DNA from: a virus | Lineage: Duplodnaviria > Heunggongvirae > Uroviricota > Caudoviricetes | Length of the DNA: 34,551 bases | Direction: 5' to 3' (one strand) | Virus record (IMG/VR): IMGVR_UViG_2778261031_000007 | Location: 1-34,551 of that record | Shown here: one piece after another, positions 4,710 through 17,058 of the stretch | Layout: the number at the start of each line of letters is the position of its first letter | How positions within the stretch are numbered: position 1 is the first letter of the stretch | Translations under genes and position numbers: made by a program | The notes under the pieces: generated by a model | Told to the model about the DNA's origin: nothing | Database searches by the model: none | What the model saw: only the letters and a program-made list of their open reading frames with translations

Positions 4710-5099
4710 ATGATTGACGCTCATGACTTCACAAGATGGGTGCGCACACAGGACACCCGTCTGGCTCCCGTTCTTCAGGGATTATTTGATCTCTACATCC
4801 GTGGTCGTGACAACAGAGCACGCACCACAAAACCGGAGAATGCAGACACCCTTTATTTCACAGTAGACGACTGCTACCGCGTGGACTTCACACCACACGG
4901 GCTGGCGTTGCACTGCCTGACACCACACGGAGAATCACTGCTGGCGTATTACGACTCCCCGGCCTCCGTATTTGCGGCAATGCTGGCGCATCGCACTGCT
5001 GGCGGGTGTGCCTCGCTGAGTGAATACACCGCTGAATTTAACCGCCTTTCTGCCCTCTTCTCGCAGGAGTGGCAGCGCGTGACGGGATACCAGCCATGA
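4710..5099 (+). CDS. Hypothetical protein (129 aa)
   Basis: ATG 4710; stop overlaps start of A (ATGA at 5096-5099). Confidence 0.5.
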   Translation: MIDAHDFTRWVRTQDTRLAPVLQGLFDLYIRGRDNRARTTKPENADTLYFTVDDCYRVDFTPHGLALHCLTPHGESLLAYYDSPASVFAAMLAHRTAGGCASLSEYTAEFNRLSALFSQEWQRVTGYQP

Positions 5100-7906
5100 A
5101 TGAGTTTGCATGGAGCTGGAATGAACCACGGCCAGCCATTGATCCGGCCAGATTTACGGAGCACAGGCAGGAAACTGAAACCGACCTGCAACGCGCCATC
5201 CGTTACTACCTTGAGGCAGACAAAAAGGCTCTGGAAGAACAGGAAGCGAAGGAGGAAGCCTTTTTCGCACAATCCACCGTGGGTAAAAAACTCATGGCAT
5301 CCCTTGAGGAAGCCGGACAGCGTGAAAAGCTGGCACAAAGCATCATCAGCAAGCGTCAGGCAACAGAACAAGACCCGGTGGCCCGTGCTTTTGCCACACT
5401 GAAGGTGCTTCCCGTTTATCTGCGTGAACCTCTGAGCCGCCACCTCTCTTTCCTGCGCAAAAAACAGGAAGCCGATCGCCAGAAAGGCAAAAAGAGCTGG
5501 CAGGCTGAACGCTACGCGCGCGGAACCCTGCGCAAAATATTCGAACGTCTGGACCGCACCGATCACCGCTGGCTGACACCGGGTTATCGCTCCCTTGCCG
5601 GACGCGAACGCCTGGACGATTTGCTTTACCTGCCGCAGCTCAACAAACACCAGATACAGACGCTGGCCACCATGACGGCGGCGATGTTCAGCAGCACCTT
5701 CGAAAAACTCTGCGATGGCTTTGGCGCGACTGATGGCGAACTGACCATGGATGTAACGCTGAAGGCGTATCAGATGCTGGCCCGCATGGCGTTACACCTG
5801 CACGCCATGCCTCCACATTATGACGCACTGACAACAGACAAAGACCGGAGGAACGAACCGGACACGGAGCTGCTGCCGGGCGCAATCCTTCGCCTGACCT
5901 GTGCAGAATGGTGGAAACGCAAACTGTGGCTGTTACGTTGCGAGTGGAGAGAAGAACAACTCCGCGCCGCCTGTCTGGTTTCCAGAAAAACATCGCCCTA
6001 TCTGAGCCAGGACGCGTTAAGCGAGTTTCGCGCACAGCGCGAGAAAACACGCGATTTCCTGAAAAGTTTCATGCTGGAAAATGAAGACGGGTTCACGATT
6101 GATCTCGAGACGGTGTATTACGCGGGAGTAAGTAACCCGGTTCACCGTAAGGCAGAAATGATGGCCACCATGAAGGGGCTGGAACTTCTGGCCGAAGCCC
6201 GTGGCGACAAAGCGGTGTTTCTGACTGTCACCTGCCCGTCAAAATACCACGCCACAACAGAGAACGGTCATCCGAATCCCAAATGGAACGGGGCCACCAT
6301 GCGCGACTCCAGCGATTATCTGGTTAACACGTTTTTTGCGGCGGTCCGCAAAAAACTGAACCGCGACGGCCTGCGCTGGTATGGCATCCGCACGGTGGAG
6401 CCTCACCATGACGGCACCGTGCACTGGCATATGATGGTCTTTGCTCATCCGGAAGAAATCGACAGCATCGTGGCCATCACCCGCGATATTGCCATTCAGG
6501 AAGACCGCCACGAGCTGGGCAATGATATTACTCCGCGCTTTAAGGTGGAGTATGTCGACGGCTCCAAAGGCACACCAACCAGCTATATCGCGACCTACAT
6601 CGGAAAAAACCTGGACAGCCGCGCCGTGGATGGCATCGACCCGAAAACGGGCAAGCCACGCGTTGACCACGAAACCGGAAAATCAATGGCCGAGAGTGTG
6701 GAACGCGCCATCGGCTGGGCGCGCCTTCACCGGGTCCGCCAGTTCCAGTTCTTTGGCATCCCCTCCCGTCAGGTATGGCGTGAACTCCGCCGCCTTGCCA
6801 GCCAGATGGCACGCAACCCGGAAGGCCCGCAACGGCTGAAGGATGATGCAATGGATGCGGTACTCGCTGCCGCTGATGCCGGGTGTTTTGCCACCTACAT
6901 TGAGAAACAGGGCGGCGTACTTGTTCCACGCAAAGACTACCTGATTCGCACCGCCTACGACCTCGCAGATGAGCTGAACGATTACGGCGAACAGAGCGTA
7001 CAGATTTACGGGATCTGGTCACCACTCATCGGGGAATCCTCCCGTGTGTGCACGCACCCGGATAACTGGAAGCTGGTAAGACGTAAACCGGAAGCGGAAG
7101 ACAGCACCCGCGAAAATGGTTTTGACCTTCAGGGCGGCCCTGCCGCCCCTTGGACTCGTGGCAATAACTGTCCCCGTGTACAGGAAACGGACAACAACGG
7201 GACAGAACAGCCGGAAGAACGGCCAGCACCGTGGCCGCAGCTCCCTGACGGCGTTGAAGTGAACGAATGGATGCGCTCACTGAAACGGCACGAACGCCGG
7301 GCGCTGATGCGTTCGCTTCGTGACAAACAGGCAAAAAACAGCAGTGATGAAATGCAGAGCTGGACACAGAGCCGCAAACAGCAGCGGCCTTTGCCTGATA
7401 ACCACGAATTACTCGCTAGAGAATGGCGGGAGTCTGCTGAATCTCTCGGCCTGCATATCGGTGAACAACAAATGCAGCACCTGTTACGGGGCGGCAGTCT
7501 GTACGTTGACGGCAGCATCATTGCACCGCAGGGATTTGAAATTGTACGCAAACCGGATACCCGCCCGGACAGCCGAATCACGCAGCTCTGGCAGCGCCTG
7601 AGCCGTAATCACGGTGTAAGCAGCACGGAGATCCGCCATAACCCGGTCGCCAGCTATCTGGCACAGCTGGGGGCATCAGACCCTGAAGCGGCCACACGCC
7701 TGGCATCCACACTTCAGCAGGACCAGAACACCATGAAAACACCCGTTACCGTGCTTTCTGACATGCTGCGCGCCATCCGCGACGCAGAGCACGCACAGAG
7801 AATCAGTGAAACCACTGAACGTGCCCGCCGCAAAGCAGACCTGCTGCGGGGTGGCCTGACCAGTGGAAACAAAAACAGACAGAAACGGGATTCACAAATC
7901 CCGTAA
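5096..7906 (+). CDS. A: Replication initiator A (rolling-circle HUH endonuclease, P2 gpA-like)
   Basis: VEPHHDGTVHWHMMVF HUH motif and N-terminal AWSWNEPR match recalled P2 gpA; start set at ATG 5096 (coupled to upstream gene), alternative GTG at 5069. Confidence 0.9.
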   Translation: MNEFAWSWNEPRPAIDPARFTEHRQETETDLQRAIRYYLEADKKALEEQEAKEEAFFAQSTVGKKLMASLEEAGQREKLAQSIISKRQATEQDPVARAFATLKVLPVYLREPLSRHLSFLRKKQEADRQKGKKSWQAERYARGTLRKIFERLDRTDHRWLTPGYRSLAGRERLDDLLYLPQLNKHQIQTLATMTAAMFSSTFEKLCDGFGATDGELTMDVTLKAYQMLARMALHLHAMPPHYDALTTDKDRRNEPDTELLPGAILRLTCAEWWKRKLWLLRCEWREEQLRAACLVSRKTSPYLSQDALSEFRAQREKTRDFLKSFMLENEDGFTIDLETVYYAGVSNPVHRKAEMMATMKGLELLAEARGDKAVFLTVTCPSKYHATTENGHPNPKWNGATMRDSSDYLVNTFFAAVRKKLNRDGLRWYGIRTVEPHHDGTVHWHMMVFAHPEEIDSIVAITRDIAIQEDRHELGNDITPRFKVEYVDGSKGTPTSYIATYIGKNLDSRAVDGIDPKTGKPRVDHETGKSMAESVERAIGWARLHRVRQFQFFGIPSRQVWRELRRLASQMARNPEGPQRLKDDAMDAVLAAADAGCFATYIEKQGGVLVPRKDYLIRTAYDLADELNDYGEQSVQIYGIWSPLIGESSRVCTHPDNWKLVRRKPEAEDSTRENGFDLQGGPAAPWTRGNNCPRVQETDNNGTEQPEERPAPWPQLPDGVEVNEWMRSLKRHERRALMRSLRDKQAKNSSDEMQSWTQSRKQQRPLPDNHELLAREWRESAESLGLHIGEQQMQHLLRGGSLYVDGSIIAPQGFEIVRKPDTRPDSRITQLWQRLSRNHGVSSTEIRHNPVASYLAQLGASDPEAATRLASTLQQDQNTMKTPVTVLSDMLRAIRDAEHAQRISETTERARRKADLLRGGLTSGNKNRQKRDSQIP

Positions 7907-8011: not shown

Positions 8012-8971
8012 ATGAAAATTTGTATCGACGACGGCTCCACCAACATCAAGCTGGCATGGACTGAGAACGGCGAACGCCGCAACGCCATCAGCCCGAACAG
8101 CTTCAAGTCGGAATGGTCTGCGCCGTTCGGTGGCACGCATCCCGCGAACTACATGCTTGATGGCGTGCGCTATGGCTTTGATCCGGTCAGCGATCGCTTT
8201 GTCCAGACGACTGACACGCAATACCAGTACAGCGATGTGAATGTAATCGCCATTCATCACGCGCTGGTCAAATCAGGCATCACACCACAGGAAGTGGATG
8301 TGGTTGTCACCCTGCCACTGAGCGAGTATTTCGACACAAACGCACAGCCGGACATGGCCAACATCAACCGCAAAAAAGCGAACGTCATGCGCCCAGTGGA
8401 GTACCAGAACGGCGAAGCATTCACTATCCGTAACGTACGGGTTATGCCTGAATCCATTCCGGCTGGCTTTAAAGCACTGGCTGACATGAGTCCGTTTGAA
8501 TCCCTGCTGATTGTGGATTTAGGCGGAACCACGCTGGATGTGGCAAAGGTTCAGGGACAACTGGCAGGTATCAGCCAGGTGTTTTGCGATCCACACGTAG
8601 GCGTTTCTCTGATGGCCGATGCCGTACTGTCGGTGATGGCCACTAACGGTATGCGCACCAGTCACCACATCGCCAATACCATTATCGAACATCGCCATGA
8701 TGAAGCCTGGCTGCGCCAGCACATCCACAATGACGCGCATTACGCCAGCCTGATGGCGGTTATTCGTGAAAAGGAAGAAACACTGAAACAACGCGTGATC
8801 CGCGCGCTGGCGGGTTTTTCGGGTTACGGGCGGGTGATGGTTGTCGGTGGAGGGGCGGAGATTGTGGCACCCGCTATCCGCGAAGCCTGCGGAGTTAATG
8901 CGACTTTCATCGCGGACGGGGTGCCACAGTTTGCTCTGGTTAATGGGCTGTACGCAATGGACAAGGAGTAA
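8012..8971 (+). CDS. parM: ParM/StbA-type actin-like segregation ATPase
   Basis: 319 aa; IDDGSTNIKL, ISPNSFK, QYSDVNV, VHHAL, VMPESIPAG, DLGGTTLD, GGGAE and LVNGLY motifs collinear with recalled R1 ParM. Confidence 0.85.
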   Translation: MKICIDDGSTNIKLAWTENGERRNAISPNSFKSEWSAPFGGTHPANYMLDGVRYGFDPVSDRFVQTTDTQYQYSDVNVIAIHHALVKSGITPQEVDVVVTLPLSEYFDTNAQPDMANINRKKANVMRPVEYQNGEAFTIRNVRVMPESIPAGFKALADMSPFESLLIVDLGGTTLDVAKVQGQLAGISQVFCDPHVGVSLMADAVLSVMATNGMRTSHHIANTIIEHRHDEAWLRQHIHNDAHYASLMAVIREKEETLKQRVIRALAGFSGYGRVMVVGGGAEIVAPAIREACGVNATFIADGVPQFALVNGLYAMDKE

Positions 8972-8975
8972 ACCA

Positions 8976-9287
8976 ATGACGACTCCAACCAGACGGATAA
9001 GTTTCTATCTGAAGCCCGCCGCCGTCAAGAACGAAGGCGAAGCATGCGCCTGGCTGGACAGCCTTACACCAGAAGCCCGCAAAAGCGGCCAACGCGTAGC
9101 TTTTCTGGCCGGGCTGGCACTTCTGAAAATGAATCCAGCAGAGGCTTACCGACTGGCTGCATGGGCTGACGATGAGGCGTTATCAGTGACACAAACCAGG
9201 ACAGAGCGCCCCTTGTCACAGCCAGTACCAACCGCACAGATAACCAGTCAGATGGCTGGGAATATCCGGGCGTTGTTTCCTGAATAA
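8976..9287 (+). CDS. ParR-like small DNA-binding adaptor (call by position and size)
   Basis: 103 aa starting 5 nt after parM stop with AAGGAG RBS; same size class and arrangement as ParR. Confidence 0.45.
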   Translation: MTTPTRRISFYLKPAAVKNEGEACAWLDSLTPEARKSGQRVAFLAGLALLKMNPAEAYRLAAWADDEALSVTQTRTERPLSQPVPTAQITSQMAGNIRALFPE

Positions 9288-9293
9288 CACAAC

Positions 9294-9315
9294 ATCAGGG
9301 CGAGTTCGCCCTGAT
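9294..9315. terminator. Hairpin between convergent genes (ATCAGGGCGA-GTTC-TCGCCCTGAT)
   Basis: Near-perfect palindrome between parR-like stop and the convergent 198-aa gene stop. Confidence 0.45.
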
Positions 9316-9332
9316 GCACAAAGCATGCTAAA

Positions 9333-9929
9333 TCAGAATTTAGTATGCAATTTATCTACCAATCGCTTAGCCTCATTAAGTAGTTTTTGGTATTCCCTGC
9401 TATCGTTTTCCTGATCTTCATACGCTCGCCGAACACGCCATCGAAGAGCAAGGCATTTTAAGTTCCGGTAAAACCTCGGATTACGCTTGCGGCACTCTTC
9501 CATATAAGGTTCAAAATGGACATCAAGAAAGATTAAGGTAGAACCATAAACACGATATAGATACCGCTCATCATACAAACCGTTATTCACGGCATTAGCA
9601 CAACGCTCCCACTCATTAAAAATGAGTTTTAATGCTTTTGCTCCATCCGTTTGAGAATATTCCTCTTTTCCCCAATCAGCGATCGGAAAGTTATGGCGAT
9701 CCTTATGAATACGTAGCACTTCTGACCACGCATCGACTATGTCCTTGTTACGTTTATATGCAGCCTCGAAATCCAACGAATTTTTTTCGCGCGACGTTTT
9801 TCTTTGATTTCGTATGCTAATCACTGCAATAAGCGCACCCGCAGCTCCTGGATAAAACGTAGGGCTGGATTCCCAAATACTGGAAAAAATTTTTCCTATA
9901 TAACTAAGGGCAGAAAGAACTAGATCCAT
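9333..9929 (-). CDS. Orphan membrane-anchored protein (198 aa), unknown function
   Basis: ORF with one N-terminal hydrophobic helix (PGAAGALIAVISI) and a charged soluble domain; visibly lower G+C than flanking phage genes. Confidence 0.7.
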   Translation of the reverse strand: MDLVLSALSYIGKIFSSIWESSPTFYPGAAGALIAVISIRNQRKTSREKNSLDFEAAYKRNKDIVDAWSEVLRIHKDRHNFPIADWGKEEYSQTDGAKALKLIFNEWERCANAVNNGLYDERYLYRVYGSTLIFLDVHFEPYMEECRKRNPRFYRNLKCLALRWRVRRAYEDQENDSREYQKLLNEAKRLVDKLHTKF

Positions 9930-9942
9930 TGTATTTAACCAT

Positions 9943-9965
9943 AAAAAATGGGAGCCAAAGCCCCC
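9943..9965 (-). terminator. Attenuator-like hairpin plus U-tract immediately upstream of the 198-aa gene
   Basis: Minus strand reads GGGGGCTTTGGCTCCC then ATTTTTTA, ending 14 nt before the ATG at 9929. Confidence 0.35.
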
Positions 9966-9997
9966 ATTCTACTGAAACTACTCTAAAAAAACAGGAG

Positions 9998-10042
9998 TTA
10001 AACGTCCCAGTTTTCTTCGCTATAGATGCGGCGTACGGTCAT
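9998..10042 (-). CDS. Candidate 14-codon leader peptide (MTVRRIYSEENWDV)
   Basis: AGAGGAG RBS 7 nt before ATG; lies directly upstream of the hairpin at 9943-9965. Confidence 0.25.
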   Translation of the reverse strand: MTVRRIYSEENWDV

Positions 10043-10379
10043 AGTTAGTCTCCTCTTTTCAATCATTTAAACATCACTAATTTACTTTTAACATGGAGAT
10101 GGTTTTACAGTTGTCAACCACCTCCCCCAAATCTGTTGGGGTAAGCTATCACGCCTACCATACACATACAATGATGAGGCTATATCGTGTAGTCACACCG
10201 ATAAGGATAAGTTCATCTTCTTCGCTGCCTTAATGTGACCAAATATAGCACATTTGAAGCGATATACATCCTGTAATGATACTGCACAATAGTGCACAAA
10301 TTTGCACAATTTTTTTGAACGACTTTTTGCCCTTCCGGCCCGCGTGGCGGCTGGATCCGTCAGGGATCCGTGCGTGCAC

Positions 10380-10403
10380 AAAAAAACGCGCTTTTTCTGC
10401 GCG
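10380..10403 (-). terminator. Candidate minus-strand intrinsic terminator (CGCGC stem, then U7 on minus strand)
   Basis: Plus strand AAAAAAA-CGCGC-TTTTTCT-GCGCG. Confidence 0.3.
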
Positions 10404-10405
10404 CA

Positions 10406-10424
10406 GGTGACGGGGGAACAGCCC
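10406..10424. other. Candidate cos-like element (GGTGACGGGGGAACAGCCC)
   Basis: About 12 of 18 positions match the recalled P2/186 cohesive end GGCGAGGCGGGGAAAGCA; lies on the expected side of the portal gene. Confidence 0.2.
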
Positions 10425-10808
10425 GCGTTTCAGGGGGTAAATAGCATTCCCTGAACGATGTCGCAGCGACACAACAGAATGGCTGTATCGCTCACGCTGA
10501 GCCTGAAAAAGACGTAAGGTGTTCTGATTTGATGGGATGAAAGGTAAGGCCGTCAAAATCGCACTGAGGCGGCGAGAACATGCAGTCAGCGCGGCGGGAT
10601 TGTGTAAGAGTCTGGCCGTCGATGATAGCGATAAGTCGGAAGACGTCGTGAAATTATCTGATTGATACAGGAGCTGGAGAGTCGGGGCATAAATTTTTTA
10701 TGCCCCGGCGAAGCAGCAGACAAGCGAAGCGCGTCAGTGATGCGGCACCTTGCCGACCACACTTCATAAGTGCAAAATACGAGCAAAGAAATCAATGGAG
10801 GCTGTTCT

Positions 10809-11333
10809 ATGGTCATTAATTACAAGCAGTTACGAGAAAAACGAGATCAGGTAAAGGAGAGTTTTCGCCGCAATGAAGACCTGACCCCGCTTGTACGCAT
10901 TGCCCAGGGAATTGTTGATGCTTATGAAATCTCTCTGGAGCTGCCATCACAGACATGGACGGATAGCGACGGTAATCGCCAGCATTACGTTTCATGCGGA
11001 CTGGAAACGGCTGAAGGGTTTCGCAGAATGCCTTTATCTCAGATTCCTGCCGCTACCCCCAAAGCAAGGGGCGGCAATGATGAGCGAAAACTGATTTTCA
11101 GCATTGAGACAGTGGTTGACGACACACCTGGCGAAGTCGCCTTCGTGCATACTCCTCTTTCGATCGCAATGTATAACGATGAAATACAGGTTCGCGTTAA
11201 TAATAATATCGTGCCACTTAAAGAAGGTAATTCACCATACACCACCGTTTGTGAAGCCATTCAATATTACGTTCTCTCTGAAATTGATAATCTCAAGCCT
11301 GACGGCACCCAGAAAATGGTTCAACTCTGGTAA
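10809..11333 (+). CDS. Orphan protein (174 aa), unknown function
   Basis: GGAGG RBS at 10797-10801 with ATG at 10809 (track ORF starts at upstream GTG 10770); followed by a strong terminator. Confidence 0.65.
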   Translation: MVINYKQLREKRDQVKESFRRNEDLTPLVRIAQGIVDAYEISLELPSQTWTDSDGNRQHYVSCGLETAEGFRRMPLSQIPAATPKARGGNDERKLIFSIETVVDDTPGEVAFVHTPLSIAMYNDEIQVRVNNNIVPLKEGNSPYTTVCEAIQYYVLSEIDNLKPDGTQKMVQLW

Positions 11334-11338
11334 AAAGG

Positions 11339-11364
11339 ACAGCCCCATCACGGGGCTGTTTTTT
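11339..11364. terminator. Bidirectional terminator shared by the 174-aa gene and portal gene
   Basis: CAGCCCC-ATCAC-GGGGCTG then T6; portal stop codon lies in the loop. Confidence 0.6.
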
Positions 11365-12394
11365 CATCAAGAAGAGCATAAGAATTAAAACGGATCACCT
11401 CTTCGCCAAGCCAGTCATTGATGTGCTTCATGGCCTCCATAACGGGCATCAGCTCGTTAATTGCGTAAACCCGCGCGGCCTTTTCCACATCACCAAACGC
11501 ACTTTTTTCACCCGGCATCGCCCCCATCAGTTGCGGCGGAACGCGGTGCGCAGCCAGCACATCATCACGGGATGCCGCCTTAACATTCATGAACTCATCC
11601 TTTGCGGTGATCTGCTGGAACGGCAAAATTTGCACACCTTCTTTGCCCCCGTTGGGCGCATGAATGAGCACGTTTTTAAACGCACCACCACCACGTGCAC
11701 CCTGTAGCGTTTCTTTCAGGGAGTCCATGCTTTCGCGGTTTACCTGCGCTGCACCGATGTAGATGATACACCCGGCGTGGGATCCGTTGTCGTAATACAG
11801 TTTTCTGAACATGTCCGCCGAATGAGACAGGCTGGCCGAGAGTAATGCGCCGAGATATTCCGGCATGCCGTAGATTTCCTGGTTAATGTCAGGATTCATC
11901 AGGTGGCACACTTTGCCAGGGCGAAACTGAAACGCGTCCTTACCATCCTGCACATACCACCATGATTCAAGATCGCTTCCGCGTCGCATGTATTTCGCCA
12001 GGGCGTGCCGTAATTTAAGCGGTTCGCCGAGCATATTGCTTCGAAGCTCAAGGAATGCGTTACCGAACACAAACCAGTCCAGCGCCAGCGCCGAGAAATC
12101 CTGCCGGGAAAGCAGCGGGTGCGGAATATAGCAACCGAGCAATACATTGCGCTTAAAGTAAAGCGCAGACTGATGCCAGGACGTTTGCCGGGCCGCTCTT
12201 GCCAGACCGTACCAGTCCACCGGGGTTTCATACCACCGCCCGTTATCAGCACAGTACATATTGTCCAGCAGGTCATGCCCGGTCAGGCGATAAGGACCAT
12301 CAAATGTGAATGCACTGAGCGATGATTCTTTCCTGAGCGCATCAGCGAGATCAATGCGTGAACTCATGCGCACTTTTTTATTTTTTCTGCTCAT
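11348..12394 (-). CDS. Q: Portal protein (gpQ)
   Basis: 348 aa; SAFTFDGPYRLTGHDLLDNMYCADNGRWYETPVDWYGLA matches recalled P2 gpQ. Confidence 0.95.
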   Translation of the reverse strand: MSRKNKKVRMSSRIDLADALRKESSLSAFTFDGPYRLTGHDLLDNMYCADNGRWYETPVDWYGLARAARQTSWHQSALYFKRNVLLGCYIPHPLLSRQDFSALALDWFVFGNAFLELRSNMLGEPLKLRHALAKYMRRGSDLESWWYVQDGKDAFQFRPGKVCHLMNPDINQEIYGMPEYLGALLSASLSHSADMFRKLYYDNGSHAGCIIYIGAAQVNRESMDSLKETLQGARGGGAFKNVLIHAPNGGKEGVQILPFQQITAKDEFMNVKAASRDDVLAAHRVPPQLMGAMPGEKSAFGDVEKAARVYAINELMPVMEAMKHINDWLGEEVIRFNSYALLDEKTAP

Positions 12395-14145
12395 CAGAAC
12401 TCCATAACCGTGAAACGCTCGTTTTCTCCTTCGCCGCCAATCGGTTCGTTAATGACAGCAAGCATGGTTGCCCACGCAAGGTCGCCGTGGCTGATCCCCC
12501 TCGCGCGGTCCGTTTCGTAAGTGATAAAGCCGCCCGGTGTTTTCACCTTACGCACGGCGTTAAAGGCTGCGACCAGCTCGCGTTCGGCGCGATCGTATTC
12601 CCACCGCCCGGCGCGCATTATTTGCAGCATTTTCAGTACCAGCGACCGTTTTGATGACAGCGTGAAGGTGTACGGAATAGCAGCAGGGAAAAACCGTTTC
12701 ACTATCTGATAAACAGCCTCCCCGTTCCCGCCCGTCACATCAATGCCGATGTGTTCCACGTTGTAGCGATACGTGAACTCTTCAATGACTCTGGCCTGTT
12801 CTTCAAACTCCAGCCCCTGAACGCGTCGCGTCTCCACCGTTCGAAAACGGCCACCAGGAACAGCCGGAGGAGCCACCACAGACACAGCGCCGCTGTCGCC
12901 GTTGCCACTGCTGCCGTTTGCGTCATACCCAATCCATACCGGACGATTTCCCATCGGGCGGGGAGCAAAAGGTTTCCAGTCTTTCCAGTCGTCGTATCCG
13001 TCAACGCCGCAGCCAATCAGGATGTTCAGGTTAAATGCCGATTCCCCTTCGCGGACAAACTCACACATGTAGAGATTGAGGAACTCGTCTTCGGTGTTTT
13101 CATCACGGATTTCGTCAATATCGGTGTGTTTCCAGCCGTGATTAACCACATCTTCCAGCGTGACAATCTGCCGCCACGTCCGGTCAGGGCAGATAAGCCC
13201 GTTATGCAGCGTTTTCCAGTCCACAGAAAAACGCTGGCGTTTATGCGTGGCCTTTTTCTCGTTCCAGCGGTCGCCGTTCCAGTAGGCGTATGCCTCGTGC
13301 GTTTCGGTGGATGGCGTGGAGAAGTAGGTGCGCCGCAGTCCGCTGAGGGTTGCCATAGCGCCAGCCACCTTGCGCAGTTCAGCAAAGCGACTGACCCAGA
13401 AAAATTCATCAAAATAAAAATTGCCCGTATAGGACTGTGCCGACGCAGCAGAAGTGCCGAGAAAATGCAGCTCTGCGCCGTTGGAGAGGATGATTTTATC
13501 ACCCCCTTTCAGCTCCACATCAACTTCAGCCGCGGCCTTCTGAATAATGCTTTTAAACTGGAACGCCTGACGACGCGACGCAGACAAAAAAATCTGGTTA
13601 CGCTGGTAAGGTTGCGCCACATCGTCACGCAGCGCCATCAGCAGTGCTTCCTGTGCAAAATACCAGGTCGCCCCAATCTGTCGGGATTTCAGGATCATCC
13701 TGTTACGTATCCCGGCTTCCCTGCAAAGGGTCAGGGAGTCAAACCAGCCTTGCTGATGCCACTCCAGCCTGCTGATGATTTTTTCCCGCAGTGCGGCAAT
13801 CTGTTCCGGCGTGAAATGATTTTTGAGTTTTTTCGCCCGGCCTTTCTTTCCTGCGGCCATCACATCCGGCTGGCCATCATGCAGCTTTTTAAGCTGCCGG
13901 GTCAGCAGGTCTATTTCCTTAAAGTCACCGCCTGTTTTATTCTGTTTTTCAGTAAGCTGGATGAGGCGCGCATCAATGGACTGCGTGACACGCTGCACGG
14001 GTGGCGTTTCATCCCACTGGTCGCGTTTTTTCCACGCATAAATCGTGTTCGGGTTTATTCCCATCAGACGTGATATTTCTGCGGGCGGATAACCCTGCCA
14101 GTAAAGTTGCCGCGCACGCTGGCGCACAAAAGCGTCCTGAATCAT
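12394..14145 (-). CDS. P: Terminase large (ATPase) subunit (gpP)
   Basis: 583 aa, immediately upstream of portal and overlapping its start, as in P2. Confidence 0.93.
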   Translation of the reverse strand: MIQDAFVRQRARQLYWQGYPPAEISRLMGINPNTIYAWKKRDQWDETPPVQRVTQSIDARLIQLTEKQNKTGGDFKEIDLLTRQLKKLHDGQPDVMAAGKKGRAKKLKNHFTPEQIAALREKIISRLEWHQQGWFDSLTLCREAGIRNRMILKSRQIGATWYFAQEALLMALRDDVAQPYQRNQIFLSASRRQAFQFKSIIQKAAAEVDVELKGGDKIILSNGAELHFLGTSAASAQSYTGNFYFDEFFWVSRFAELRKVAGAMATLSGLRRTYFSTPSTETHEAYAYWNGDRWNEKKATHKRQRFSVDWKTLHNGLICPDRTWRQIVTLEDVVNHGWKHTDIDEIRDENTEDEFLNLYMCEFVREGESAFNLNILIGCGVDGYDDWKDWKPFAPRPMGNRPVWIGYDANGSSGNGDSGAVSVVAPPAVPGGRFRTVETRRVQGLEFEEQARVIEEFTYRYNVEHIGIDVTGGNGEAVYQIVKRFFPAAIPYTFTLSSKRSLVLKMLQIMRAGRWEYDRAERELVAAFNAVRKVKTPGGFITYETDRARGISHGDLAWATMLAVINEPIGGEGENERFTVMEF

Positions 14146-16257: not shown

Positions 16258-17058
16258 ATGATTACTCCTGCACAGCAACACTGGCAGAACGTGATGGCAC
16301 AGCGCGCAGGCCGGGCGAATGAAGGCGTGGACCACGCCGCGCGTACCGCGCATGAAGAGGTGCTGTATCGTCTGCGTCTGGCACAGGCCCGGCTTAAGGG
16401 CGTACAGGCCAGAAGCGCGAAAGCCGCCATCAAAAAAGAGTTATTGCCGGACTTTTCCGGCTGGATTGAGGGAACGCTGGAGGCTGACGGCGGGCAGCAG
16501 GATGAAGTGATTGCCACGCTGATGGTGTGGGCGATTGACTGCGGCGATCTTCCGCTGGCGCTGCGTATTGGTGCATATGTGGTCCGTCACAACCTCATCA
16601 TGCCGGATAACTTTGGACGTACTGCTGCCACGGTACTGACCGAAGAAATCTGTAATCCGGTACTGACGCAGGCCGGGACGGATGCCGACGCGGATTTGTC
16701 CGCCTTTATCGAACCACTGGACACACTTTGGGAAATTGTCGCCAACCAGGATATGCCGGACGAAGTGCGCGCCAAATTATGCAAGGCGTGCGCCTTTGCC
16801 CGCCGTGGCCTGAGCGATGCGGACAGCATGGCCTCATCACTGAAGCTGCTGCGCGAAGCGATGCACCTGAATCCGAACGCAGGTGTGAAACGCGAGATTG
16901 CAACCCTTTCCCGCGCCCTGAAAAAAGCCGATTCCGCAGCCGCACCAGAAGATGCCAGCACACTGCAGGCGCAGGACGAAAGCAGCAAAAGTAAAAAGAC
17001 AACGCGGAAGCCTGCAACACGAAAAACCACCGCGACGCAGAAGGCGAAGCGCGGTTAA
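16258..17058 (+). CDS. M: Terminase small/endonuclease subunit (gpM)
   Basis: 266 aa, position and size as P2 gpM. Confidence 0.85.
   Translation: MITPAQQHWQNVMAQRAGRANEGVDHAARTAHEEVLYRLRLAQARLKGVQARSAKAAIKKELLPDFSGWIEGTLEADGGQQDEVIATLMVWAIDCGDLPLALRIGAYVVRHNLIMPDNFGRTAATVLTEEICNPVLTQAGTDADADLSAFIEPLDTLWEIVANQDMPDEVRAKLCKACAFARRGLSDADSMASSLKLLREAMHLNPNAGVKREIATLSRALKKADSAAAPEDASTLQAQDESSKSKKTTRKPATRKTTATQKAKRG

Follow-up and report, generated by a model that had tools for sequence, protein, structure and literature searches.

We find that positions 10283 to approximately 10448 of a 34,551-nucleotide (nt) stretch of viral DNA (positions 1 to 34,551 of IMG/VR record IMGVR_UViG_2778261031_000007, hereafter the window) very probably constitute the cohesive-end (cos) site, with predicted DNA ends, of a P88-like temperate phage of the P2 family. 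As a whole, the window represents a P88-type prophage of the P2 family (genus Xuanwuvirus), integrated in Escherichia coli. A sequence-only reading of the window had flagged positions 10300 to 10770, beyond the portal gene, as a structured noncoding stretch possibly holding a cos site. Such a site is supported there by the spacing of its boxes and nicking site (cosN), by a family-wide pattern, by a profile match, and by sharing with satellite-like islands. Most likely, it is the expected phage element built on the plan of P2, 186, and P4 with other recognition letters. For P2-like phages, cos sites are textbook elements, and the P88-type site is a further example.

A predicted cos site beyond the portal gene

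The most diagnostic feature of the site, overlooked by the sequence-only reading, is a set of four TGCACAA boxes on one strand (R1 to R4, starting at 10283, 10293, 10303, and 10375), the first three of which are placed 11 to 17 bp upstream of the interval originally flagged (Table 1). The heptamer is not enriched over the whole window (8 matches versus 8.7 expected), and it is therefore the clustering and phasing of the boxes that constitute the nonrandom part. We propose that R1 to R3 serve as a recognition array for the terminase small subunit, a putative cosB-like element. The linker downstream of R4 ends with GCGCGCA (10399–10405), in agreement with the left nick context of the P2 type, GCGGGCA, and across the family its right half is conserved whereas its left half is variable.

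To compare the window with established sites, the ends of P2, 186, and P4 were joined and positions were measured from the first base of the annotated cohesive ends. In these three genomes, TGCAT is present at −123/−124, −111, −101, and −29. In the window and in Enterobacter phage phiT5282H, TGCAC is present at −123, −113, −103, and −31 from GGTGACG (10406 in the window). The distance from the third to the fourth box is 72 bp in P2, 186, P4, phiT5282H, and the window alike, and the start of R4 lies 36 nt from the CGGGG core of cosN both in P2 and in the window. P4 has almost nothing in common with P2 except cos (PMC9122126, PMC9594776). Because P4, otherwise unlike P2, has the boxes at the same positions, the boxes belong to the packaging signal. 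The location agrees as well. The cohesive ends of P2 and 186 lie 170 to 180 bp past the portal stop codon, and a cos site was therefore expected in the flagged interval.

Table 1. Features of the predicted cos site and of the surrounding prophage region (window coordinates)
Feature	Position	Strand	Remarks
Replication endonuclease gene	5069–7906	+	
ParM and partition-family gene	8012–9287	+	
DUF4760 gene	9333–9929	−	Pfam E 1e-24
Boxes R1–R3, TGCACAA	10283, 10293, 10303 (10283–10316 with T7 at 10310–10316)	+	10-bp phasing
Spacer R3–R4	10317–10374		R3-to-R4 start distance 72 bp
GGATCC-N5-GGATCC double palindrome (GGATCCGTCAGGGATCC)	10353–10369		within the spacer
Box R4, TGCAC then A7	10375–10386	+	counterpart of TGCATTAAAA, start of the P2/P4 55-bp cos core
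Linker R4–cosN	10386–10405		weak hairpin CGCGC 10387–10391 / GCGCG 10399–10403
Predicted cosN (cohesive-end sequence) GGTGACGGGGGAACAGCCC	10406–10424	+	
Right flank of cosN, GCGTTTCAGGGGGTAAATAGCATT	10425–10448	+	end of block common to satellite-like island
42-codon open reading frame (ORF)	10537–10665 including stop	+	42 aa
Palindrome, 11-bp inverted repeat, 3-nt loop	10683–10707 (arms 10683–10693, 10697–10707)		no U-tract on either strand
Inserted cargo cassette (moron)	10746–11372	+	627 bp versus 14 bp in P88
174-aa ORF	10809–11333	+	PHROG 5091; no Pfam or PADLOC match
Bidirectional terminator	11339–11359		pattern scan and folding
Portal gene	11348–12394	−	
Terminase large subunit gene (gpP-like)	12394–14145	−	
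Scaffold, capsid, and gpM-like small terminase genes	from 14267 onwards		
gpM-like small terminase homologue	16258–17058	+	

The features shared with the cos sites of P2, 186, and P4 comprise the location past the portal gene, three TGCAY boxes, the 72-bp gap, a fourth box with an A-tract, a linker of approximately 19 to 21 nt that ends with GCG(G/C)GCA, and a GC-rich cosN of the form GGYGA...CGGGG. The terminases are of the same families, and the packaging signal is likewise one that is common to satellites. Note that the three-box and 72-bp criterion was derived in this analysis from P2, 186, and P4 and not from the literature; the window carries its three upstream TGCAY boxes 10 to 13 bp apart and the 72-bp gap. 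The window also has the core form of the P2 family, namely a TGCAYNAAAA box, a linker of approximately 19 nt, and a GC-rich GGYGA..CGGGG element. In contrast to P2, 186, and P4, the boxes of the window read TGCAC rather than TGCAT, and its cosN is shifted by 2 nt relative to R4 and has a 2-nt internal gap. The terminase proteins of the window are only 38 to 47% identical to those of P2.

The sequence-only reading had also pointed to a likeness between 10406–10424 and the P2/186 cohesive end. This likeness is present, and its coordinates are borne out by the spacing in P2, 186, and P4 and by a profile. The sequences compared were GGCGAGGCGGGGAAAGCAC for P2, GGCGTGGCGGGGAAAGCAT for 186, and GGTGACGGGGGAACAGCCC for the window. 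Other published ends are GGCGAGGCGGGGGAACGAG for SEN4/5 (PMC5261728) and, for phiRSA1, mapped ends printed as GGTGAGGCGGGGTCCAAC, 18 letters (PMC5694545). The cosN of the window begins with GGTGA like that of the Ralstonia phage phiRSA1, which unlike the window has TGCAT-type boxes, a CGCGC right flank, and a betaproteobacterial host. The profile, searched with nhmmer, was built from 79 TGCAT-type cos regions only. With the HMMER filters off (--max), its best match in the window was 10288–10416 (E 0.006 versus 0.35 for the runner-up), and the alignment was colinear from R2 to cosN, with GcaGGcGtGgcGGGG aligned to GCAGGTGA--CGGGGG.

The architecture invites a further comparison, as a functional analogy only, with the cos site of phage lambda, wherein a nicking site likewise lies beside phased repeats for the small terminase subunit with a bend or spacer between them. 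Lambda cos comprises cosN, a cosB with R sites, and an IHF site; its ends are 12 nt long and its small terminase belongs to another family. It has no sequence relationship to the cos of the window.

On the basis of this arrangement, we suggest the following course of events during late growth. The terminase, with its gpM-like small and gpP-like large subunits, would recognize a composite signal consisting of R1 to R3 spaced one helical turn apart, the 72-bp spacer (approximately seven turns) with its central palindrome, and R4 with its A-tract. Staggered nicks at cosN, approximately 30 bp beyond R4, would then generate 5′ cohesive ends of approximately 19 nt with the predicted sequence GGTGACGGGGGAACAGCCC, and the DNA would be translocated through the portal encoded next door. 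Protein binding to the boxes, the nick positions, and the overhang length are all inferred. The portal and terminase proteins of the window are those expected to act on this cos, and in tblastn searches the P2 proteins Q, P, O, N, M, and L matched at 47, 44, 35, 42, 38, and 38% identity, respectively. The portal and large terminase genes are transcribed toward cos, which separates the replication/cargo arm from the 3′ end of the portal gene.

Predicted nick positions and DNA ends

The top-strand nick is predicted at 10405/10406, after GCGCGCA, with an uncertainty of approximately 2 nt. This placement was chosen because it agrees with the profile alignment and because GCGCGCA/GG (the slash marking the nick) matches GCGGGCA/GG of P2. 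Strict spacing from R4 would alternatively place the nick at 10403/10404. An overhang of 19 nt is assumed by analogy, with 17 nt being possible; since P88-type sites do not conserve the right flank seen in the P2 type, this length is only an assumption. Placing the nicks by two-fold symmetry was attempted and rejected, as the left context matches P2 whereas the right context is unconserved, and the overhang length cannot be fixed in this way.

Several observations weigh against the assignment of a cos site and its ends. With default filters, nhmmer reported no match of the profile in the window, and the match seen only with the filters off is weak (10.6 bits). The right flank TG-CGCGC, which is near-invariant in TGCAT-type sites, is absent from the window, which reads CC-GCGTTTC. 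Identity to the P2 cohesive end is 13 of 19 positions from 10406 and 10 of 19 when aligned ungapped at the fixed R4 offset. Moreover, no record in the phage collection begins at the predicted end, and the record of phage P88_4B11 was opened at the equivalent of window position 10328, 77 nt upstream of 10406. Contig ends in IMG/VR did not pile up at cosN, and neither did those in metagenomes, where a pattern just right of cosN gave 83 matches; none of these started at 10406, and one contig of 31.7 kb ends 22 nt past 10424.

Some of these points can be qualified. P88-type relatives vary at the right-flank position after cosN. The opening point of the P88_4B11 record looks arbitrary because the two record ends join without duplication. 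A seeming start at the motif in IMG/VR locus L121 was rejected, being a storage-chunk boundary and not a contig end.

Two phage records depart from their relatives at the predicted cosN. That of phage Chuche, whose source is listed as environmental, has a private 7-nt deletion at approximately 10414–10420, and that of P88_4B11 has a private 5-nt deletion at approximately 10422–10426 together with an A-to-G change at 10417. The remaining 65 distinct E. coli-type sequences in the alignment lack these changes, and the predicted cosN is intact in other phage records. The two deletions look like, and are compatible with, misjoining or an assembly artifact at cohesive ends, which is circumstantial evidence for the placement.

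Distribution of the site among phages and satellite-like islands

The block from 10283 to 10745 is 91 to 93% identical in P88 and related coliphages, and the window is identical to P88 over 10370–10440. In P88, which has no cargo cassette, the portal gene directly follows the block. An exact-pattern scan of IMG/VR yielded 120 loci, in all of which the motif lies at a fixed distance past the portal gene, with portal identity falling to 68% and that of the replication protein to 30%. The block is situated 270 to 350 nt from the portal stop codon in relatives and 951 nt from it where, as here, the cargo cassette intervenes. R1 to R3 are conserved in all relatives compared, also where portal identity is only 68%, and cosN is near-invariant in TGCAC-type loci that were gathered without using cosN. 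Conservation peaks over R3 and its T7 tract, where the major allele has a frequency of 99.5% in 66 distinct E. coli-type sequences, and over cosN and the flank to its right, of which 10425–10448 is 99.5% conserved in the E. coli group. Of 5426 complete E. coli genomes, 1148 carry the 165-bp core, and no annotated feature lies under it in 59 of the 60 matches listed.

We also scanned one genome per species by spacing only, with the pattern TGCAYN{5,8}TGCAYNNNNNTGCAYN{64,70}TGCAYNAAAA, which gave at least 120 loci. The matches listed include approximately 100 from Enterobacterales as well as others from Ralstonia, Moraxellaceae, and Acinetobacter, with R4, 19 nt, and then GGCG(A/T)GGCGGGG...TG-CGCGC. 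By tblastn, 62 of the matches listed are P4-like satellites and 28 are phages. A TGCAT fourth box is carried by the 62 P4-like satellites and 16 of the phages among these matches, and a TGCAC fourth box by 12 phages and no P4-like satellite. The IMG/VR matches likewise include no P4-like satellite with the TGCAC type of cos. This split suggests that TGCAT and TGCAC sites may represent two packaging-specificity classes. Intermediates occur, in that Photorhabdus and Arsenophonus phage loci and an island of Samsonia (L185) combine a TGCAC fourth box with a P2-like cosN. A Ralstonia locus has the full four boxes and GGTGAGGCGGGGTCCCAAC at the P2 offset, which exceeds the 18 letters printed for phiRSA1 by one C.

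The spacer between R3 and R4 has a recurrent feature of its own. A palindrome centered at position 34 to 36 of the 67-nt spacer is found repeatedly in phages and satellites alike, and stems of at least 6 bp are present in 36% of 135 distinct spacers versus 8% of shuffles. Its consensus is CGCCAG-N2-CTGGCG followed by CGGCCTGAG; P2 itself lacks it, and the window has an imperfect form, the inverted repeat TCCGGCC (10334–10340)/GGCTGGA (10349–10355). The BamHI-like double palindrome that the sequence-only reading had reported is present 1 nt from the position given (10352–10368). It is restricted to the E. coli P88 group, with phiT5282H, an E. coli satellite-like island described below, and other lineages differing there, and we read it as lineage-specific spacer sequence.

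Five satellite-like islands (L252, L165, L186, L234, and L185) of approximately 12 kb, with no portal and no terminase gene, also carry the site. L252 (NZ_CM132658.1, 4411344–4423858) is an E. coli island next to hpt. The islands encode an integrase, an Icd-like gene, an 889-aa Toprim primase-like protein, a second integrase, the cos block, an Ogr/Delta zinc-finger activator, and a 236- to 240-aa Psu-like protein (a weak PHROG match, E 0.004). In addition, L252 and L234 have a P2-family capsid gene, the product of which is 36% identical to that of the window and has an N-terminal extension of approximately 120 aa. L185 has the TGCAC-box cos with a P2-like cosN noted above, and L252 also carries a MazEF pair. 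The islands are not P4-like by tblastn, and the segment from Ogr to capsid of L252 occurs in 57 of the 5426 complete E. coli genomes.

When compared with the whole window, four of the islands (L252, L165, L186, and L234) have only one strong DNA match, which runs from 10281/10283 to 10427/10448 at 77 to 81% identity; homology ends at 10448 with L252 and at 10427–10435 with L165, L186, and L234. Because these islands match only that block, the cos site would measure approximately 165 bp (10283 to approximately 10448), and the rest of the flagged 470 bp would not be part of it. A tentative extension, which we regard as rather doubtful, is that the P88-type cos (TGCAC boxes plus GGTGACGGGGGAACAGC) defines a separate packaging-specificity class, with the small terminase reading TGCAC versus TGCAT, and that its terminase might not serve P4-like satellites and might be exploited by the family of approximately 12-kb islands instead.

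We found no description of these islands in the searchable literature, nor any of the P88-type cos or its box sequence. The islands are the most interesting lead from this work, and the TGCAT/TGCAC split is also worth pursuing, as the cos type may help to predict which satellites a helper can mobilize. Approximately one in five complete E. coli genomes carries a P88-like prophage, and a signal of approximately 165 bp would permit correct placement of the genome ends of these prophages and correct annotation. P88-type cosmids, transducing particles, and cos knock-outs could make use of it, as has been done for P2 and P4 (PMC9594776, PMC12239096).

The cos core of P2 and P4 is given as 55 bp (Ziermann & Calendar 1990, as cited in PMC9122126, PMC9594776, and PMC5694545). 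Because three phased boxes approximately 100 bp upstream are fixed in phages and satellites, our comparison suggests that the functional signal of the P2 family is larger than this core. Longer cos fragments are packaged more than 1000-fold better (PMC9594776), which a larger signal could explain.

Truncated versions of the site were seen at two loci, L119 (5550–5640) and L061, both of which have lost the 72 bp between R2 and R4. In the head module of these loci, identity is only 30 to 37% to the portals of P88 and P2 and 35% to the large terminase of the window, and on reading the sequence no second cos-like motif was found between the truncated cos and the portal gene. Such loci, wherein a shortened cos stands next to a diverged head module, raise the alternative that the site in the window is a cos by descent that is no longer used because the prophage is defective. 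We consider this improbable, given that the cos of the window is intact and identical over 10370–10440 to that of P88, an inducible phage (PMC5285337), and that the portal, terminase, scaffold, capsid, and gpM homologues of the window are all full length.

The remainder of the interval and neighboring genes

A second alternative is that the flagged interval is ordinary intergenic DNA containing terminators and a small gene, and that its likeness to P2 cos is coincidental. The features that speak for this are a terminator-like pattern, a strong hairpin, and an annotated ORF. The terminator-like pattern, noted in the sequence-only reading, was recovered by a terminator pattern scan (10386–10404, minus strand, CGCGC/GCGCG stem of 5 to 6 bp with a T7/U7 tail), but its folding energy is no better than that of shuffled sequences (z −0.37). 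Its place is that of the linker in the P2/P4 55-bp cos core, and a role as a back-up terminator in this lineage is possible. A conserved hairpin between R4 and cosN was considered as a separate candidate and rejected, since the stems are 3 to 5 bp, their enrichment is modest, and the left half varies without compensation.

The 42-codon ORF has the coordinates and length originally reported, and the P88 and P88_4B11 records list it as a hypothetical protein, but its pattern of variation does not support a coding function. The 34 distinct DNA sequences of this ORF, which is the most variable part of the block, encode 25 distinct proteins, and the variable sites are distributed 19/17/14 by codon position. 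In relatives, the start codon is mostly GTG or TTG and only in a minority ATG, one relative has an internal stop codon, and no Pfam or PHROG match was found. We therefore rejected this ORF as a gene for want of coding constraint, and it is probably not one.

The palindrome at 10683–10707, for which 10-bp arms had been claimed, is present with arms of 11 nt, although it lies outside the cos site. It folds with energies of −22.2 and −28.9 kcal/mol, much lower than those of shuffled sequences (z −5.1 and −6.6), and together with the next 15 nt (10683–10722) it is 99.6 to 99.8% conserved, more than any other part of the block that lies outside cos. In P88 it is located approximately 40 nt past the portal stop codon, and it is absent from the satellites. 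It is probably an end-of-operon hairpin and not part of cos. An Rfam scan of 9000–12000 at E ≤ 1 returned nothing in the interval. The remainder from 10450 to 10770 reads as noncoding DNA that evolves fast, together with a conserved hairpin located after the portal operon in relatives without cargo. A coincidental likeness to P2 cos is very unlikely, because four boxes and a cosN at P2 spacing, conserved across genera and common to satellites, are not a coincidence.

The cargo cassette, inserted between cos and the portal gene, has a plausible promoter of its own (read by eye) and alters the final few codons of the portal gene. P2-like phages are known to take up insertions preferentially between cos and the portal gene (PMC5694545), and their cos-proximal arm is a recognized hotspot for defense cargo (PMC9122126). 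The DUF4760 gene sits in this cos-proximal hotspot, where P2 carries old/tin. Because its protein gave no match in a PADLOC search and the gene occupies a cargo hotspot, we regard it as a putative defense gene.

The genes for the ParM actin-like ATPase and the partition-family protein, which are kept in the E. coli P88 group and absent from the phiT5282H-like group, lie approximately 1 kb left of the boxes. ParMRC centromeres consist of short direct repeats phased at approximately one helical turn. That the TGCACAA repeats are such a centromere (parC-like iterons for ParM/ParR) rather than a packaging signal is nevertheless hardly credible, since P2, 186, P4, and the satellite-like islands share these boxes and their spacing, and since the repeats hold a fixed distance to cosN and not to parM, the intervening cargo gene being variable. 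No ParM is known from P2, 186, or P4, and tblastn finds none in the phiT5282H-like group; because the boxes occur in all of these, a ParR centromere is excluded. The presence of ParM and partition genes in a P2-like prophage hints at plasmid-like maintenance.

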